Shown in pieces: positions 3,650 to 52,199 of a DNA stretch of 64,000 nucleotides. Position numbers and translations under genes: made by a program. Position 1 is the stretch's first letter; each line of letters starts with the position of its first letter. The notes under the pieces are model-generated. The model made no database searches and was not told where the DNA came from. It saw only the letters and a program-made list of their open reading frames with translations. The stretch comes from Octopus vulgaris. Taxonomy: Eukaryota. The stretch is from positions 63,488,001 through 63,552,000 of the forward strand of contig OX597815.1 in the NCBI GenBank assembly GCA_951406725.2, written 5' to 3'.

Positions 3650-3800
3650 CATTAATTACATTATTTACATTTGACGGATATTTGTCCTCATTTTGTTTGT
3701 AGTTAACACAGCGTTTCGGCTGACATACACTCCAGCCTTCATCAGATGTCTTGGGGAAATTTCGAACCTGGGTTCTCATTCCTAAGGTATTTTTCGATGT
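3650..3800 (-). mobile_element. Penelope-like pLTR fragment with hammerhead motif (left arm of inverted pair with 11566-11725)
   Basis: Reverse complement of 11566-11725; minus strand ACAT-CTGATGA-A-GGCTG...CAGCC-GAAAC-gct-GTGT at 3706-3749. Confidence 0.6.
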
Positions 3801-11421: not shown

Positions 11422-11725
<304 letters not shown>

Positions 11726-42826: not shown

Positions 42827-43449
42827 ATATATATGAAAAAACAAGTCAAGATAGAAAATGCTAAAATAATTTTATAAAGAACATTTCAGTACCGGTTTCA
42901 GTCATTTGAGACCTTTTCAACTGTAACGATTAAATAATTAAATTTAGAAAAATTAAAAGAAAAGTTTTTTTAAAAGAATATTTGTATAGAGGACTTGCAG
43001 TCGGCAGGTGGATGTCTCCGGGACCGTTCGGCAGGATGCCCGAGACGTCAGCCTAAGACGCCGTCAGCCCGGCGGGTGGCCGCCGCCTTCACGCCACTTT
43101 GCTTTCTCCGTTACAGCGGTGGTGCCCCAGCATGGCCGCGGCCTTCGGGCTAAAACATTTTAAAGGATTTTTAAGGATTTTATAGTGTGCAAATATAAGT
43201 GGCATTTTCCTTGTTTCTGCTTTTCTCTGTCGAACCCACAAGTGTAAACAAGAGACAGAGAAAGGCAGAAACAAGGAAAATACCACTTATATTTGAACAC
43301 TATACAAATATTCTTTTAAAAAACTTTTCTTTTAATTTTTCTAAATTTAATTATTTAATCGTTACAGTTGAAAAGGTCTCAAATGACTGAAACCAGTACT
43401 GAAATGTTCTTTATAAAACTGTTTTAGCATTTTCTATCTTGACTTGTTT

Positions 43450-43460: not shown

Positions 43461-43509
<49 letters not shown>

Positions 43510-44499
43510 TTATCAATTTGTTTTGCAAGATTCCTGATGTGAAATCGTGTGTTCAAAAAGATATTGTTGTATTTCGGGATGGTCATTTTATTTATGTATT
43601 TATTTATTTATTTATTTTGCAAAATAAACAGACATGCTACATATTTTTTCTTCACTCGTTTATTATTGTTCTTATTTTATTATTTTAACTCAAAGTCCAT
43701 TGTCCTGAAATCTTTCGTCACACGTCTGTGACCTCTTCAGCAACACTTTTCGTTTTTGCGTGTGTTTTTGCTCCACTACTCTATTCTGTTATTCTAAGAT
43801 GTGCATCGGTTTGTTCGCTTGTGTTTGTGTGTATGTGTGTGTGTCGTGTGTGCGTGTGTGCGTGTGTGTGTATGTGTGTGAGTGTATGCTTCTGTGTGTG
43901 TTATAGTCTTTATCAAAAGTGTGGCCTTCCCCTCAGCCCCATCCTCTCACCCCGTTGTGTTGCTGTTGATCCTAAAACCCGAAAAAAATATAGTTTAGTT
44001 TCTTTATTTCTTTGTGTATGTGTGTTCGCCCATGATATTGCCATGATGGTAGCTGTTGTTATTGCCATCGTTGGCACTGCCGCTGCTACAGACCGTGTTA
44101 GTTACGTTGTTGACATCGTTATGGCCGCCCATGAAGTTTCATTTGTGCGTTTATGTGTGTGTATGGGTTCGCTCCGTATGTATCCATGTCCTCTATATAA
44201 TTTTGTTTATTTATATTTATCTATCTGTGTCTTACATTTATCACAGGTATGTGGCAGATATATTTATATATTTATTTATCGATTTATATATTTTTATTTA
44301 CTTTTTTTATATCTATCTCTGTTTCTCATAAGTGTCACAGATAAGTGCATATATATGTCTATTATGTGTGTATTACTCTGTATGTTTCTGTGTATTATTT
44401 ACTTTTGTTTTTCTTTTTTCCCTTTGCCCTCTCTCTTCACGTCCCTACTGTCTTTAGTCATGTGGGATGGTATGTCATATTTTCTATTAACCTCGGTCA

Positions 44500-44795
44500 G
44501 TCTACTGCTTGTAGCTTGAGTCAGTTTTATGTGTCGATAGTACTTTAACCTCTTAGCATCAATCCAGCCTCCATGTTCTGCGTGAGAATGTTTGTAGAGC
44601 ACTGACGAGCTTTTCCCTTCTTTTAGCTCTCGCCAATGCTCATTTATACGTTCTCCTATGTTGCGTGCAGTCACTTCTATGTAGGTAGTTGTCATGTTTC
44701 TGCATCGTCCCTCAGTACATCGTAAGCTAAACACTACATTCCTAACCTTACAGTTAACCTGTGGGTTCAACCTATATACAACACATATTGATTCG
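44500..44795 (-). mobile_element. Penelope-like GIY-YIG endonuclease remnant
   Basis: CKVRNVVFSLRCTEGRCRNMTTTYIEVTARNIGERINEH...SVLYKHSHAEH resembles PLE C..KNVVY..C..C..YIGET.R.L..R..EH. Confidence 0.75.
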
Positions 44796-44796
44796 A

Positions 44797-44843
<47 letters not shown>

Positions 44844-44958
44844 ATAGAGGGCATTATTACACATAAATGCCTCACACTAGGAGGGACAAAGTCATTACTA
44901 CCAAAATTATACTAATCATACCCAAATGCAGTTTTTCAAAGCAAGACATTTAAAAAAT

Positions 44959-45027
44959 GAATTTAGTTCTGTATCACCGTGATTTCACATTCAACTTACG
45001 TCTAATGATCGTCAGCAGAACTGATTC
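44959..45027 (-). ncRNA. Type I hammerhead ribozyme
   Basis: Reverse complement identical to 51279-51347. Confidence 0.8.
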
Positions 45028-45438
45028 TGAACACATCATAAATAAACTACCAACCTTACGTAGCGAAGACGAACAGACAACTGCTCACTCCGGCCAAGCA
45101 CATGGAATGTTTATAAATCATATATCCGGTAAATGGCGGGCTTTTTACGAACTGCATGTCGGGTAATGAAAAGTATTTCGGAATAAGTTTAACAATTAAG
45201 GATAATCTCTTAATAAGGGATCTTAACAAGAAATTATCGGGTAGCTAGCGTGAAAACCTCATAAAAGAAAAGAATCCGAAAATAATTTTTTTCTTTTGAA
45301 CAAATTAATTATATCTATATTGTATAGAGGGCATTATTACACATAAATGCCTCACACTAGGAGGGACAAAGTCATTACTACCAAAATTATACTAATCATA
45401 CCCAAATGCAGTTTTTCAAAGCAAGACATTTAAAAAAT

Positions 45439-45507
45439 GAATTTAGTTCTGTATCACCGTGATTTCACATTCAACTTACGTCTAATGATCGTCAGCAGAA
45501 CTGATTC
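45439..45507 (-). ncRNA. Type I hammerhead ribozyme
   Basis: Reverse complement identical to 51279-51347. Confidence 0.8.
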
Positions 45508-45658
45508 TGAACACATCATAAATAAACTACCAACCTTACGTAGCGAAGACGAACAGACAACTGCTCACTCCGGCCAAGCACATGGAATGTTTATAAATCA
45601 TATATCCGGTAAATGGCGGGCTTTTTACGAACTGCATGTCGGGTAATGAAAAGTATTT

Positions 45659-45955
45659 GTGAGGCATTTATGTGTAATAATGCCCTCTATACAATATAGA
45701 TATAATTAATTTGTTCAAAAGAAAAAAATTATTTTCGGATTCTTTTCTTTTATGAGGTTTTCACGCTAGCTACCCGATAATTTCTTGTTAAGATCCCTTA
45801 TTAAGAGATTATCCTTAATTGTTAAACTTATTCCGAAATACTTTTCATTACCCGACATGCAGTTCGTAAAAAGCCCGCCATTTACCGGATATATGATTTA
45901 TAAACATTCCATGTGCTTGGCCGGAGTGAGCAGTTGTCTGTTCGTCTTCGCTACG
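45659..45955 (+). repeat. Right arm of 480-bp repeat, part upstream of LINE insertion
   Basis: Inverted relative to left arm; matches 51431-51728 apart from a 1-nt indel. Confidence 0.95.
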
Positions 45956-46229
45956 ATGTTACTTTGTTTGTTAGATGTTGCTTTTTCATCGATGCACTGA
46001 ACTTTGAACGACTGAATACGAGTGCCTGCTTGGTTGGTAAATTGCTGTTGCTTTGTTAATCACTGTTGTTTTGGTGTCTTTTCAATAAGACTGTTAGTGG
46101 CCTTCGTGCGAGGGCTGCGTACTTGGTTCCCCCCCCCCCGCGGGGGAATTATTGTGTGTCATCGTGTGTGAAACACATCCAAAAAAAAAAAAAAAAAAAT
46201 ATTTTTCTACAAACGGCTGCAAAGCCAGA

Positions 46230-47585
46230 ATGTCGTCGGAAGGCGGTGAATGCCAACTGGAAAAAAAACTCGAAATGGAGTCCCCCATTTCTTGTTCACC
46301 AATCTCAGGTGATGAAAGCTCTCAAGCCTCAGGTGAAGAAAGCTCACCGGCGGTGACGCCGGAAAAAGAATCGGCGGTAACGCCAGGAAAAAAGGCCCCA
46401 GCGAAGAAGTTCGCAGAAGTTGTGGGGCGTAAACAAAAAAATATAAATATAGACAATCTAGAAAAATACGAAGCCCTGCTAAAAAAAGAAGGAAATGAGA
46501 TAGCAATAAAAAAAGATGTTGAAAAAAAGGAAGAGATTGAAAAGAAAAGGATTATTTATAAGACATACAGCACGACAACAAAAAGTATACAAAAAGTGGA
46601 AGAGAGTAAAATAGAGGAGTGCCTGAAGGCAATTAGAAAGGATGTCACCTACATAAACAGAGGAAGACGCTTCGGAACGGTAGAAGTGAGGTTCAGGACC
46701 GAAGAAATAGCAAAGAGGCTATCTACCGAACCACAAAAAGCAGGAAACATAGTCCTTCTACCCTTGTACAAAGGAAGAAGGACTTCGAAAATAGTCATGA
46801 GGAATATTCCCCCAGAGGCGGACGCCACATGCCTGGTGGCGGCAGTGATGCTGGGCCTGAAGGAAAAAATCAATATCCTACAAGCTACAGTGGAGGAGGA
46901 GGGTTTTTGGCAGGGCCAGATCATCACAATGGCAATACAAGCGGAGGCCCAGACACTGGAGGAAATACCAGAGGTGCTGAGGCTCGATGAGGAGGAGAGA
47001 GTATTGGTATTTGTAGAAGGAAGAAAGCCGAGGTGCTTCGGCTGCGGGAAAAAGGGACACGTAAGAGCGGAGTGTCAACCTACACCGCAGGTAGAAGCAC
47101 CGTCGGAAAAAGAAGAAGCTGAGAAGGAAAAGAAAACAGAAGAAACCAAAGAGGTAGAAAAAGCATCGAGTGGTGCGGAAAAAGAAAAAGAAAACGAAAA
47201 AGAGGAGGGGTGGTCTAAAGTTACCAAAAAAAAACGGAAAACAGAAACCACCCCTCAAGAAGAAGAAAACCAGAAAAAAAGAAAAGAAGTTACTACTTCA
47301 TTTATGGCCATTAAGGCTACCAACAACAGACTAGTCAATGTGTTGGCAGCCATGGCCAATGTGGAAAGAGTAAGGAGAACAAAAGACTGTATCGTGTACA
47401 AAATAGGCCGGAAGGACTACAGGAGGATAAAATCCGAATTCTTCCACGACGTGGGCCCTCTGAGACTGGACATGTCTCCATATCTATACGAGGGCCTGCG
47501 TCGGACTCCCCCACGAGCCAAGGAAAAAAATAAAAGCGAAGAAGAACAAGGCGAACCAGTCGAACAAGCCAAACTACTGATATAA
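46230..47585 (+). CDS. LINE ORF1 Gag-like protein with zinc knuckle (451 aa)
   Basis: CFGCGKKGHVRAEC CCHC knuckle preceded by VFVEGRKPR, RRM-like segment, W.KV..KKRK basic motif; first in-frame ATG at 46230. Confidence 0.9.
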   Translation: MSSEGGECQLEKKLEMESPISCSPISGDESSQASGEESSPAVTPEKESAVTPGKKAPAKKFAEVVGRKQKNINIDNLEKYEALLKKEGNEIAIKKDVEKKEEIEKKRIIYKTYSTTTKSIQKVEESKIEECLKAIRKDVTYINRGRRFGTVEVRFRTEEIAKRLSTEPQKAGNIVLLPLYKGRRTSKIVMRNIPPEADATCLVAAVMLGLKEKINILQATVEEEGFWQGQIITMAIQAEAQTLEEIPEVLRLDEEERVLVFVEGRKPRCFGCGKKGHVRAECQPTPQVEAPSEKEEAEKEKKTEETKEVEKASSGAEKEKENEKEEGWSKVTKKKRKTETTPQEEENQKKRKEVTTSFMAIKATNNRLVNVLAAMANVERVRRTKDCIVYKIGRKDYRRIKSEFFHDVGPLRLDMSPYLYEGLRRTPPRAKEKNKSEEEQGEPVEQAKLLI

Positions 47586-47593
47586 GGTAAGTG

Positions 47594-50500
47594 ATGGACT
47601 ACATTTATGTTGGTTGTTTAAATGTGCGCGGCCTGGGATCAAGCGGGAAGCAAGGTCGCTTCCTTAATGATATCAGGTCGCGCAATTTGGATGTTATTGT
47701 TGCTACAGAAACCCGGTTAAAGGGGCCAAGAGGTCTACTCCCACTGTTTGACGGCTACGAGAGTTTTTTCTCTCCGGCCAGTCCTACAGGCGGGGGTGGG
47801 GTGTTGGTCCTATTAAAAAGAAACCGGGTTTTTGAGAAAAAGTTAATTTTTTCAGACCCAGAAGGTAGGCTGGTCGTCATGGATTTGACGTTCAGTAACG
47901 GTAAAGTTATCAGACTGGTTGCAATTTACGCACCCAACAGTAAAAAAGGGCAAAGTGATTATTTTCGTGATCTAGAAAACTTTCTCGGTACTTCGCATTC
48001 ATTAGTTGTGCTAGGAGACTTTAACACAATTTGCAAAGCGGATGTAGATTGTGTTGGCTCGAATGCAGATAGAAAAGGTAACTCATGCTTCCTGGAACTG
48101 CTAAGCCGCTTTGAGCTAGCAGATCCTTATAGGTTGGAATTTCCGAACGCTCCATTGTGGACATGGTCAAACAGCGACGGATCTTCCAGGTCATACATAG
48201 ATAGAATTCTAATTAGAAAGGTAGACAGTAAAATAGCTAAGTGTCCACAGTTTTACCCGATCAGCTACAGTGATCATAAAATGGTCACTTGTAAGCTTGA
48301 CATAGATAAGGTTAGAAATAGAGGATCCGGTTACTGGAAACTTAATACGTCCCTTTTGGCGATTAAGGAGTACAGAGACCGGATTAGGACCATAATTCAG
48401 AGGGCGCTGTCTGGTGCCATCATTAATAACAAATGGTGGTACGCCCTCAAACGAGCCATCAAGTTTGAGTCTATTAGATATAGCATAGGAGTAGTGTCTA
48501 GAGAGGCTAGAAGGGAAACTACTCTAGTTAAGGAATTAGAGGAAGCCATGAAAACTGGCTCTGCGGCTCAGGTGGCGTCCAAGAGACTGGTGTTAAACCA
48601 GCACCTCGAGGCCAAACACATGGGCTGCATTGTCAGGGCCAGAATCCGTCATATGGGATGTGAAGGAATCAACGCCGTGAGATGGGCCCGAGTGGTGGAA
48701 GCCCGGAATGGCAACGATGCCACGATTCGATCTTTGAAGAACCAACAAGGTGAGTTGATAGACGAACCCGAGGAGATGTGTGAGGCCTTTCAGGAGCACT
48801 TCGCTCAGCTTTTCGGTGAGTGCGGCGGGCTGGATAGGAGGAGGGCCTTTACGGACCTACTCGACGGGCTGCCGCGCTTATCGGGGCGAGATGCGGAGGG
48901 CTGTGAAGGGCCAATCACGCCTGAGGAGGTGGTGGAGGCAATGGCGGACTGCGGCGCGGGCAAGGCGCCGGGTTTGGATGGTCTACCCTACGAGTTATAT
49001 AAGAGTATGCCAGACTTGTTCGGGCACCTACTGGCGGAGGTCTATGCGAACTGGCAGCAGAACGGGCTTATACCCAGATCTGTGCGCCGGGGAGTGGTGA
49101 CTCTCGTCAGAAAGGACCCGAGCAAGGGGGAGTGCATTGATAATTTCAGGCCCATCACTCTGCTAAACACAGAGTTGAAGATTTTGGCCAAAGTGTTATC
49201 GAAAAGATTGGCGCGTGTCGCGGATGGTCTGATCGGAGAGGCACAGACATGTGCCGTTCCGGGCAGATCCATTCAGGATAATCTCCATCTAATGCGGTAC
49301 ACTATAGAGGGGTTTAATAAAGATTCTGGCAAGGGTGGGGTACTGGTCCATTTAGACCAATCTAAAGCCTTTGATAGGGTCGACCATCGTTACCTGGTAT
49401 CTGCCCTGGCACAGTTCGGGCTGAGCCTTGGCTTCCTCAGGTGGATTATCCAAATTTACGACAACATCGACTCGGTAGTTCGGGTGAACGGCTTCTTGTC
49501 GAAGCCGTTCAAAATCAAACGCTCGGTTCTTCAAGGGTGTCCGCTCTCCCCGCTTTTGTATGTGATGGCTCTTGAGCCATTACTGCGAAAACTGAGCGGC
49601 ATCCCGAGACAGCCAGGTAATGGAAAATCAGTGTCAGCGTACGCGGACGACATCACCATCATCGTGACCGAAATGGACCACCTATGTAAAGTAGGCAAGG
49701 CCATAGAGGTTTACGAGACGGTGACAGGAGCAAAAGTTAATCGCGAAAAGTCAGTCGGCTTGCAACTAGGCACCTGGAGAGGCAAGTCGATGCCTCCTGA
49801 CAGCGTCGTGGGACGTTGGACGGAGGGTCCGATTAAACTGCTAGGGGTCTGGTTCGGTCCAGACCTCCAAATAGAGAAGAATTGGGGCGAGGTAACGAGC
49901 AAGGTGGCTGCAGTAGCCAAGACCTGGTCTTGGCGGTGGCTATCCTTGAAAGGGAGGGCGGAGGTGGCCAATGTGTTTATCGCATCGGTTATCACCTACC
50001 GCCTTTCCGTCGTTCCTTGCCCCGATTCGTGGTTGACCAAGTTGGAAAGACAGCTCTTCTACTTCTTGTGGAAGGGTAGGAAACCACTTGTGAAACGCTC
50101 TACTTGCTGTCAACAACCGTTAAAGGGTGGGCTAGGGATGCCTTGGCTGATGATGCGCAGACATGCGCTGAGGTTAAGACATCTGTGGCTCTACCTGGAT
50201 GGTGAACGGGTGTGGTCTCCGTTAGCAAAACTGATGTTTCCCAAGTTCACTAGTTTCGGTGGACGGGAAACCTGGCCGAATCGTAGATCGAAACTTGGTA
50301 CATGGCATACGGAGTGTCGCAAGGCTCTCCTGCTATTCCGTCGCTCGGGCAACGCCTGCGGTGGGGGTTCCACCACATTCTTCTATAGAGGGTTGGTAGA
50401 GGCGAAATGTGAAGACACCTTGGGGGAAACCCTGGGTCTCGACGATAATCAGCTGGCCAGTCTGTTCCGACGTACGTTCGAGCCGAAGACACTGGACAAC

Positions 50501-50992
50501 TTCCAGAAGTCTCTGGCATGGCAATGCTACAGAGGAGCTCTACCTGTTCGGGATAAACTCGCAAGGCATGGTGGCCAAGACAGTCCGATGTGTCCAAGAT
50601 GCGGGCGGGATAGGGAAACCGTCCTGCACGCTATTGTTCATTGTTCGGTCGTGTCTGAGGTGTGGGTTTATGCCGAACAGCTGTTGTCAAGCACACGAAG
50701 AGTACAGCTGTCGACTGAGTGTATTAAAAAAATTGACCCACCAGATTTCCTCGCGAAAGAAGGTAAGAATTGTTTTCTCGTTGTGGTTGCAATTGCGAAA
50801 GAGGTGATATGGAAGACGAGAATGAAAGGTATACGGTCAGGTAAGTTCATATCCGGCCCTGGGTTGATGAATTACTTCATCTACCACCTGAAAAGGAAGA
50901 TAGGGCTGGAGAGAAAATGCCTGACTAAAAGAGTGTATGAAGAACGATGGAAGGATGTAGCACGGAAGTTGAGAATGGATGACACCACATAA
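47594..50992 (+). CDS. LINE ORF2: APE endonuclease, reverse transcriptase, C-terminal zinc finger (1132 aa)
   Basis: LNVRGL, IYAPN, LGDFN, YIDRIL, SDH (APE); YWKLN; PGLDG, FRPITLLN, LDQSKAFDRV, QGCPLSP, YADD (RT); CPRC..ETVLHAIVHC. Confidence 0.96.
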   Translation: MDYIYVGCLNVRGLGSSGKQGRFLNDIRSRNLDVIVATETRLKGPRGLLPLFDGYESFFSPASPTGGGGVLVLLKRNRVFEKKLIFSDPEGRLVVMDLTFSNGKVIRLVAIYAPNSKKGQSDYFRDLENFLGTSHSLVVLGDFNTICKADVDCVGSNADRKGNSCFLELLSRFELADPYRLEFPNAPLWTWSNSDGSSRSYIDRILIRKVDSKIAKCPQFYPISYSDHKMVTCKLDIDKVRNRGSGYWKLNTSLLAIKEYRDRIRTIIQRALSGAIINNKWWYALKRAIKFESIRYSIGVVSREARRETTLVKELEEAMKTGSAAQVASKRLVLNQHLEAKHMGCIVRARIRHMGCEGINAVRWARVVEARNGNDATIRSLKNQQGELIDEPEEMCEAFQEHFAQLFGECGGLDRRRAFTDLLDGLPRLSGRDAEGCEGPITPEEVVEAMADCGAGKAPGLDGLPYELYKSMPDLFGHLLAEVYANWQQNGLIPRSVRRGVVTLVRKDPSKGECIDNFRPITLLNTELKILAKVLSKRLARVADGLIGEAQTCAVPGRSIQDNLHLMRYTIEGFNKDSGKGGVLVHLDQSKAFDRVDHRYLVSALAQFGLSLGFLRWIIQIYDNIDSVVRVNGFLSKPFKIKRSVLQGCPLSPLLYVMALEPLLRKLSGIPRQPGNGKSVSAYADDITIIVTEMDHLCKVGKAIEVYETVTGAKVNREKSVGLQLGTWRGKSMPPDSVVGRWTEGPIKLLGVWFGPDLQIEKNWGEVTSKVAAVAKTWSWRWLSLKGRAEVANVFIASVITYRLSVVPCPDSWLTKLERQLFYFLWKGRKPLVKRSTCCQQPLKGGLGMPWLMMRRHALRLRHLWLYLDGERVWSPLAKLMFPKFTSFGGRETWPNRRSKLGTWHTECRKALLLFRRSGNACGGGSTTFFYRGLVEAKCEDTLGETLGLDDNQLASLFRRTFEPKTLDNFQKSLAWQCYRGALPVRDKLARHGGQDSPMCPRCGRDRETVLHAIVHCSVVSEVWVYAEQLLSSTRRVQLSTECIKKIDPPDFLAKEGKNCFLVVVAIAKEVIWKTRMKGIRSGKFISGPGLMNYFIYHLKRKIGLERKCLTKRVYEERWKDVARKLRMDDTT

Positions 50993-51278
50993 ATGTAAAT
51001 CAGAACGAAACCAAAAGTATCAGTGGTGAGGCGGGGCTCGTGGGGTCCGAGCTGAACCCGCCCCCACTCCACCTGTAATGTCTTCCGGTCTGTTTTTTCA
51101 TTCGATTTTATAATTTTTGCATTTTTGTGAATTTTTTGAATTTTTAATCTCATCCTTTTTGTAACCCCATCCGAGAATCTGACCCCACATCAGGTTGTAT
51201 TGTCCCCTCCTTGTTGGCCCCTTGTGGGTAATAATAAAACAGCTACGTAAGGTTGGTAGTTTATTTATGATGTGTTCA

Positions 51279-51347
51279 GAATCAGTTCTGCTGACGATCA
51301 TTAGACGTAAGTTGAATGTGAAATCACGGTGATACAGAACTAAATTC
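51279..51347 (+). ncRNA. Type I hammerhead ribozyme
   Basis: Stem I AGTTCTG/CAGAACT (extended GAAT/ATTC), core CTGACGA 51291-51297, stem II CATT-A-GAC-GTAA-GTT-G-AATG with GNRA loop, GAAA 51320-51323, stem III ATCAC-G-GTGAT, cleavage triplet AUA (after 51334); atypical U-U at base of stem II. Confidence 0.82.
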
Positions 51348-51759
51348 ATTTTTTAAATGTCTTGCTTTGAAAAACTGCATTTGGGTATGATTAGTATAAT
51401 TTTGGTAGTAATGACTTTGTCCCTCCTAGTGTGAGGCATTTATGTGTAATAATGCCCTCTATACAATATAGATATAATTAATTTGTTCAAAAGAAAAAAA
51501 TTATTTTCGGATTCTTTTCTTTTATGAGGTTTTCACGCTAGCTACCCGATAATTTCTTGTTAAGATCCCTTATTAAGAGATTATCCTTAATTGTTAAACT
51601 TATTCCGAAATACTTTTCATTACCCGACATGCAGTTCGTAAAAAGCCCGCCATTTACCGGATATATGATTTATAAACATTCCATGTGCTTGGCCGGAGGT
51701 GAGCAGTTGTCTGTTCGTCTTCGCTACGTAAGGTTGGTAGTTTATTTATGATGTGTTCA

Positions 51760-51828
51760 GAATCAGTTCTGCTGACGATCATTAGACGTAAGTTGAATGT
51801 GAAATCACGGTGATACAGAACTAAATTC
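51760..51828 (+). ncRNA. Type I hammerhead ribozyme
   Basis: Identical to 51279-51347. Confidence 0.8.
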
Positions 51829-52199
51829 ATTTTTTAAATGTCTTGCTTTGAAAAACTGCATTTGGGTATGATTAGTATAATTTTGGTAGTAATGACTTTG
51901 TCCCTCCTAGTGTGAGGCATTTATGTGTAATAATGCCCTCTATACAATATAGATATAATTAATTTGTTCAAAAGAAAAAAATTATTTTCGGATTCTTTTC
52001 TTTTATGAGGTTTTCACGCTAGCTACCCGATAATTTCTTGTTAAGATCCCTTATTAAGAGATTATCCTTAATTGTTAAACTTATATATATATATATATAT
52101 ACATGCTCGAATCAAGTGGTCCTGGTCCATTTTGGACATTACTCTGATTATGCCAGCTTTCGAAGAATCTTTGGTGTTATGGGCGTGTTCATTGACCTC

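Follow-up and report, generated by a model that had tools for sequence, protein, structure and literature searches.

A two-armed hammerhead retrozyme insertion in Octopus vulgaris and a candidate Penelope-type enzyme for its mobilisation

We describe a small non-coding repeat carrying a hammerhead ribozyme in the genome of Octopus vulgaris (GenBank assembly GCA_951406725.2), starting from a 64,000-nt stretch of contig OX597815.1 (positions 63,488,001 to 63,552,000, forward strand), referred to hereafter as the window. Positions 44830-52084 of the window are occupied by a single two-armed insertion in a (TA)n tract, later split by a long interspersed nuclear element (LINE). We suggest that this is a retrozyme of the kind without long terminal repeats (non-LTR), moved in trans by a Penelope-type enzyme that would prime both cut DNA ends at two sites of the RNA (probability about 0.82). 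What was observed in its favour is the architecture of the insertions, their two fixed ends (called A and B), the pairing of A with B, the haplotype shared by paired arms, the target and a conserved fold. The retrozyme class itself is already known, while the family with its two-armed build appears to be new.

The element is bounded by a (TA)21 and a (TA)10 tract, and its two arms, made of a 480/481-nt unit, meet head to head at 45658 (Table 1). With unit positions counted from the predicted cleavage point of the hammerhead, the outer end of the inverted arm lies at unit position 133 (end B, about 44839) and that of the forward arm at unit position 266 (end A, about 52081), the forward arm being interrupted at unit position 394 by a 5286-nt LINE. 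The original prediction had read 44836..52084 as a tandem array of a near-identical 480-bp unit with four hammerheads. Its description of the unit holds (copies in the window are 99.7–100% identical, with one 1-nt indel), as do the four hammerheads with an intact core and the predicted cleavage point after 51334. The layout has to be replaced: a four-copy tandem array is rejected, as each strand carries two of the motifs, the arms are opposed and the LINE sits between pieces. Tandem Repeats Finder reported no tandem run of the unit, and no run in the window exceeds 1.75 units. Out of the 7249 bases taken to be repeat throughout, 5286 (45956-51241) are the LINE, which had gone unmentioned together with the inverted arms, the two fixed ends and the (TA)n target.

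Table 1. Coordinates of the element and its parts, in positions of the window
Feature	Position	Strand	Remark
(TA)n target, left side	44799..44840		overlaps the arm end by microhomology
Inverted arm, 829 nt, 1.7 units	44830..45658	-	unit positions 274-480, 1-480, 1-142
Type I hammerhead motif	44965..45022	-	predicted cut between 44972 and 44971
Type I hammerhead motif	45445..45502	-	predicted cut between 45452 and 45451
Forward arm, inner piece	45658..45955	+	unit positions 96-394
LINE target-site duplication, 5' copy, 6 bp	45950..45955	+	
Full-length two-ORF LINE (APE endonuclease type)	45956..51241	+	within the unit
LINE open reading frame (ORF) 1, 451 aa	46230..47585	+	weak zinc-knuckle match, E 0.07, below cut-off
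LINE ORF2, 1132 aa	47594..50992	+	endonuclease, reverse transcriptase, zf-RVT
LINE target-site duplication, 3' copy, 6 bp	51242..51247	+	
Forward arm, outer piece, 1.75 units	51242..52084	+	resumes at unit position 389, through one full unit, to 269
Type I hammerhead motif	51284..51341	+	predicted cut after 51334
Type I hammerhead motif	51765..51822	+	predicted cut after 51815
(TA)10 target, right side	52082..52101		

The same build recurs across the genome. We examined 56 elements, a set biased towards young, long copies: the one in the window, those at 38 loci from 150 listed matches (one locus holding two), 15 from new loci of the unit's family among 30 hammerhead-pattern loci, and that of locus L138. 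Outer ends fall at two places, 133 nt (B) and 266 nt (A) past the cleavage site, with class limits of 130–148 and 256–280, respectively, that were chosen after seeing the data. Two arms are present in 31/56 elements, and 27 of these pair A with B, none pairs A with A or B with B, and four have one odd end; if each end were chosen independently, 27/27 would have a chance of 7e-9. The 25 single arms end at A (17), at B (7) or elsewhere (1). By hand count, 75 of the 82 A or B ends enter TA repeats, and 349 end-A/TA junctions are found genome-wide. Arms of one element agree at 316/316 diagnostic sites, compared to 66% in random pairs, and share their haplotype in 25/25 loci, compared to 129/804 random pairs; at three of the eight loci with whole units on both arms, the arms have in common a variant found nowhere else.

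Arm lengths range from 88 to 5909 nt and the central junction is variable. The cleavage point is crossed by 26/29 A arms and 25/29 B arms, and both arms cross it in 20/27 A+B elements. Inner ends coincide with it in 8/87 cases against 5.4 expected; as there is no enrichment, a linear cut monomer is rejected as the template. The insertions carry the Penelope-type signature of an inverted truncated copy, a tail at one end and a microsatellite target, with a tail of 133 nt. At the central junction of two of the two-armed elements (L056, 7073-7313, and L031, 3175-3400) foreign or scrambled sequence is found, possibly a trace of the joining step.

A search of the genome (2.8 billion bases in 227 contigs) with the unit returned 217 matches from 40/1608 candidates, spread over many chromosomes. 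Copies are dispersed, arrays reach 12 units, and neither LTRs nor an internal coding region accompany them. The unit has a GC content of 34% and is non-coding, as predicted, the longest ATG frames being 33 codons on the ribozyme strand and 69 on the other. Two more families came to light through the hammerhead patterns: a sister family whose unit is likewise 480 nt long, and a third one of about 500 nt per unit. Both can be aligned with the unit along its length, and the ends of the sister family match those of the unit family. At G000:C1:64639653-64655252 (L213, L214), one arm of the sister family carries 31 consecutive hammerheads, with the B and A ends kept. The third family (L178, L162, L143, L158) is older, with a long stem II and an identical stem III palindrome. 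The predicted monomer fold is stable relative to shuffles both as a linear (z -5.8) and as a circular (z -5.6) molecule, with -6.1 for the sister family and -3.8 for the opposite strand of the unit, and 20/113 pairs of the consensus fold show double changes. Judged from sequence, the predicted assignment to the non-LTR retrozymes holds: the repeats form a family that is young, dispersed and non-coding, each unit having a single type I hammerhead.

In all four motifs the core is intact, with an AUA (NUH) triplet, three stems, a 7-bp stem I and a GNRA loop. Stem III is palindromic, with -11.9 kcal/mol as a two-molecule duplex compared to -0.2 as a hairpin, a pattern that PMC4209133 and PMC3088659 give for hammerheads working as dimers. 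The base of stem II (10.1-11.1) in the window units is U-U rather than a standard pair. This had been raised as a caveat, and the U-U is indeed there, but it has little force: natural U10.1-U11.1 hammerheads appear in the accessible part of PMC3088659, and the relatives have U-U, G-U, A-U or G-C at this place. A genome-wide pattern search with U at 10.1 and 11.1 gave 347 exact matches versus 0 for the reversed pattern, so that the motif is more than chance; with any other base at 10.1 there were 524 matches of the sister family, family 3 variants included, versus 0 reversed.

Across seven sequences of three families, 93% of cells are paired and 7/15 pairs have changed on both sides. The core and stem III were imposed by the search patterns in this comparison, and five of the seven double-changed pairs fall in stem I, which is absent from those patterns; because the seven sequences are related, the shuffle count obtained with them is not a probability. 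Among 98 whole units picked by DNA search, N7 alone within the core differs at more than one locus, and a loop change preserves GNRA. Free folding of 86 nt around the motif did not recover the hammerhead (z +0.7), and the 58-nt motif scores -9.1 in the hammerhead fold against -10.3 in its best fold. We consider it probable that the hammerhead cleaves.

A search with the GIY-YIG remnant that lies beside the element led to a very young Penelope-like family with a 1312-aa frame at two loci, L123 (G000:C1:59391500-59401499) and L124. The frame gives weak reverse transcriptase (RT) and GIY-YIG Pfam matches below cut-off, and none with the whole frame; Atlas neighbours of the protein carry Penelope-type domains, and no solved relative of it was found. 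Its nuclease is preceded by a CX4CxxC motif, and PMC8557442 links such a cysteine motif with elements of the Neptune/Nematis kind and, with reservations, with (TA)n targeting. This autonomous element, whose hammerhead-like motif occurs in 3095 copies, inserts in (TA)n and has two fixed ends 56 nt apart, and 17/17 of its outward-facing pairs, called in 17/36 locus rows, are A+B. From the cleavage point to the first end the distance is 125 nt, compared to 133 nt in the unit, both B ends close in ACAAT and both A ends in TTAAAC, and overlapping arms occur in the autonomous element as well. We favour, with some reserve, the 1312-aa element or a close relative as the mobiliser of the unit, and the earlier suspicion of a Penelope RT has gained genomic support from the fixed ends, the A+B pairs and the (TA)n target.

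Two further observations concern the autonomous family. The unit and the autonomous element have an 11-nt word in common, which follows directly on end A in the unit (positions 268-278) and directly precedes end B in the autonomous element; it is mostly retained in the sister families and may be a protein-binding signal. At the conserved A9 of the hammerhead core, the young autonomous family has C in 96 of the first 100 matches listed (A in 3, T in 1), and an older relative in the window has A, so that the ribozyme of the active family may be weakened.

In the mechanism that we propose, unit arrays would be transcribed, and the hammerhead, probably acting as a dimer through its palindromic stem III, would cut out a compact 480-nt monomer, which might then be ligated to a circle. 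A Penelope-type RT/GIY-YIG protein would bind the unit RNA in trans and cut both strands of a (TA)n tract, and each DNA end would be extended from a different internal site of the same RNA template, at 133 for B and 266 for A as the ends suggest. Each cDNA would run for a variable distance, usually past the cleavage point and often over several units, and the two cDNAs would be joined head to head. That both arms derive from one RNA molecule seems to us somewhat likelier than a separate origin, while for the template we put a circle and an uncut multimer at even odds. We draw no conclusion on transcription or circularity from sequencing runs: the unit is present in 19/24 run listings (9 studies, 4 organism labels), none of them recorded as RNA, contigs of four runs cover the unit with a joint leading back by one unit, and one contig of 510 nt closes on itself, both being patterns that tandem DNA gives as well and for which there was no silent control.

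The proposed mechanism has close precedents. PMC11167929 describes a purified Penelope protein, a dimer by prediction, that cleaves both target strands and extends them from two internal RNA sites; it treats the strands alike and does not require ribozyme cleavage. As we interpret them, the octopus insertions resemble this green anole Poseidon system (Frangieh et al. 2024) in having two internal RT starts downstream of the hammerhead and both strands of an AT-rich target cut and extended. Unlike Poseidon, in which the same sites served both strands in vitro, two-armed insertions here use one of each (27/27 in the unit and 17/17 in the autonomous element). PMC8557442 characterises Penelope insertions by an inverted truncated copy, a preference for (TA)n and a tail that is often confined to one end. 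With the Neptune/Nematis-type Penelope-like elements treated there (Craig et al. 2021) the octopus family shares partial tandems, an inverted 5'-truncated copy, a one-end tail, a (TA)n target and a hammerhead near the ends; it differs in its non-coding unit and a tail of 133 nt, not 30–40 nt.

For metazoan non-LTR retrozymes from coral, mussel and axolotl, Cervera and de la Peña 2020 (PMC7229834) report expression in monomeric and circular form and name Penelope elements as the suspected mobilisers. The octopus family is like these retrozymes in its non-coding tandem units with one type I hammerhead each, its low GC content (34%), its compact predicted fold, its dispersed arrays and the presence of Penelope-like elements in the same genome. 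At 480 nt, the unit is 30 nt above the 150–450 nt given there and within the 51–972 nt of a second source (bioRxiv 10.64898/2026.07.22.740005, accessible part). Two-armed insertions, two fixed starts and a (TA)n target are not met with in the accessible portions of these two sources, both of which leave the mobilisation mechanism open. In our literature search, outside which lay subscription journals, repeat databases and supplements, no published report was found of this retrozyme family, of two-armed retrozyme insertions with fixed starts or of LINEs homing to a retrozyme. For Penelope remnants, PMC4209133 mentions hammerheads in opposite orientation 100–700 bp apart.

Several points weigh against trans-mobilisation by a Penelope-type enzyme on two RNA sites. 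Rfam, proposed as a check in the original prediction, gave 0 matches at the gathering score and called none of the four copies as a hammerhead family (E up to 5), mid stem II changes at positions 448 and 461 are uncompensated among the 98 whole units, and 1/9 predicted frog retrozyme dimers cleaved in vitro in the accessible text of bioRxiv 10.64898/2026.07.22.740005. The link between unit and enzyme consists of architecture and end motifs that are short (about 7–10 nt) and AT-rich, the comparison covering this one Penelope family, and the tail is 133 nt in the unit versus 56 in the candidate and 30–40 in print. In vitro, start sites did not differ between the strands for the anole protein (PMC11167929), from which strict A+B pairing is not predicted. 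End B lies in a TA-like stretch, so that base pairing could set it. In locus L212, a 1.7-kb insert is missing from one pass of an arm but present in the next, which a single monomer circle cannot account for unless the insert came later. Finally, variants are common to non-adjacent units (L037, L041, L045, L058), which implies turnover after insertion, as a 2026 vertebrate survey proposes for retrozyme arrays (bioRxiv 10.64898/2026.07.22.740005, accessible text); array length is therefore no proof of rolling-circle copying.

The rival that survives best, although we hold it to be unlikely, takes the unit as a detached Penelope pseudo-LTR (pLTR): short truncated insertions would stem from linear uncut transcripts, arrays would arise by later unequal exchange, and the hammerhead cut and a circle would be unneeded. 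It follows the model proposed for vertebrate retrozymes (bioRxiv 10.64898/2026.07.22.740005, accessible text) and fits the dispensability of cleavage for insertion in vitro (PMC11167929, accessible text). It also agrees with the variants shared by non-adjacent units, the mixed passes of L212 and the overlapping arms of the autonomous element. However, no coding parent is to be seen: a Penelope frame is joined to the unit in 0/83 loci, the four nearby matches being neighbours across TA tracts or farther away. The unit as pLTR of the 1312-aa element is rejected, with an alignment score of 39.5 versus 44.1 for shuffles, and so there is no sign of the pLTR origin that the original prediction had named as its refutation. 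Moreover, three families retain the 480–500-nt period, compensatory stems and a compact whole-unit fold, which argues for selection on the monomer RNA, and arms shorter than two units also cross the cleavage point.

In twin priming of the L1 type, the enzyme would define end A only, and B would lie where the second (TA)n overhang pairs with the most TA-like stretch of the RNA. In the three families and the autonomous element alike, B lies in such a stretch, as suits this reading, which also predicts A+B pairs and a shared haplotype. Classical twin priming yields non-overlapping arms. Against this, both arms cross the cleavage point in the majority of A+B elements (see above), and seven single-arm elements end at B. 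We regard twin priming, too, as unlikely.

The LINE in the window could itself be thought to mobilise the unit, being intact and young and belonging to a family repeatedly found in it. This is very improbable, as LINE copies carry their own tail and target duplications of about 6–18 bp, whereas the retrozyme insertions lack such a tail, are two-armed and stop in (TA)n at A or B. The LINE itself is bracketed by duplicated target bases and interrupts an otherwise continuous unit. We conclude that the LINE is a passenger, not a mobiliser. Least credible of all is a DNA-level foldback or miniature inverted-repeat transposable element (MITE)-like element or satellite whose hammerhead-like motif is due to chance or dead, since the long inverted ends, the TA flanks and the lack of Rfam matches are outweighed by ends that differ (A versus B), widely varying arm lengths, a variable central junction, 25/56 single-armed elements, covarying stems and a better fold on the ribozyme strand.

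The relationship of LINEs to the unit is that of a hotspot. Among the 30 closest LINE 3' ends, four (13%) join the unit, and they are the only four genome-wide for that pattern. Two LINE families together have seven tail junctions at unit positions 368-388 (21 nt) in six loci, all in ribozyme orientation; one further tail-junction match looks like chance. The expected number is 0.035 (24297 tails, 350 units), or about 0.16 with 1600 units by a calculation by hand, compared to the seven observed, and a control restricted to one window gave 0 junctions. By junction, family and unit haplotype these look like at least four independent events. A single origin of the LINEs in units is rejected, the trees giving two sister pairs (window with L136, and L137 with L138) and mosaic 5' parts. 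At the other end, unit position 394 is the start of 3/4 copies sharing this LINE 5' end; their duplications measure 6, 17 and about 26 bp. The second family has a 1.7-kb ORF1-only derivative, found in L137/L192 and L212 at unit positions 368-385; its copies in L137 and L212 are 99.3% identical and occupy the same site, each in an arm ending at B, and represent either cargo of the Penelope enzyme or repeated homing. A 34-nt tail of the ORF1-only LINE is present at the same unit spot in L049.

Most of the remaining close LINE copies are joined to unrelated DNA or to the 5' region of the LINE itself; the unit spot is therefore a hotspot and not the main target of this LINE. Copies of the window's LINE family also follow one another head to tail in several loci (L197, L199, L200, L206, L210 and others), repeating about every 5.3 kb, with each tail running into the 5' region of the next copy. 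No clade name for the LINE came from the Atlas, homologue and Pfam searches, and the 82 homologues are almost all unnamed; its domain order (endonuclease, RT, zf-RVT) presumably fits L1/Tx1. The case recalls Tx1-Mar in Mariner (Kojima 2015, PMC4494074), an APE-type LINE repeatedly found at one spot in one orientation. It departs from Tx1-clade LINEs in that the 4/30 in the unit is below the 20% rule of PMC4494074 and that the target is a retrozyme.

The surroundings of the element contain older material. An older Penelope-like remnant adjoins its left end (43500-44794, minus strand). The remnant includes a GIY-YIG piece 56% identical to the young autonomous family and, at 43713-43740, a hammerhead-like motif, and it terminates in (TA)n near 43500. 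Just outside the TA tracts, the element as a whole is framed by two inverted copies of a 13-bp sequence (44788-44800 and 52103-52115), probably left by the older insertion. The right copy belongs to a broken frame without a Pfam match, which we take to resemble the end of a mariner transposase. Elsewhere in the window, two related hammerhead-like motifs, opposed to each other (3714-3745, minus strand, and 11623-11654, plus strand), enclose a 2.8-kb (AAT)n tract and the decayed remains of an RT-like region. A near-perfect long hairpin formed by an inverted repeat at 43183-43302 attracts spurious microRNA matches.

The mobilisation of a retrozyme and the LINE hotspot can be joined in one wider reading, which we offer tentatively and hold to be less likely than not. 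A dimer of a Penelope-type enzyme would sit on a single 480-nt ribozyme circle with its active sites fixed 133 nt apart, one primed by each cut TA end, and both would roll round to yield a two-armed insertion; two LINE families would home to the 21-nt spot just upstream of the hammerhead and be carried as cargo.

Since 2020, ideas about the enzyme behind the movement of animal hammerhead retrozymes have been guesswork from co-occurrence and pLTR likeness, and the origin of the Penelope tail and inverted arm is likewise an open question. The octopus family yields predictions at the nucleotide level, namely starts at 133 and 266, a (TA)n target and one start per strand, and the same genome supplies a young, intact candidate enzyme. 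If mobilisation in trans is true, the family shows which small RNA signal a Penelope enzyme will take in trans. If the wider reading of circle and dimer is also true, the two-armed insertions would be a genomic record of animal retrozyme movement and would explain why the Penelope tail is one-ended, and the LINE would be a parasite of a retrotransposon's parasite.

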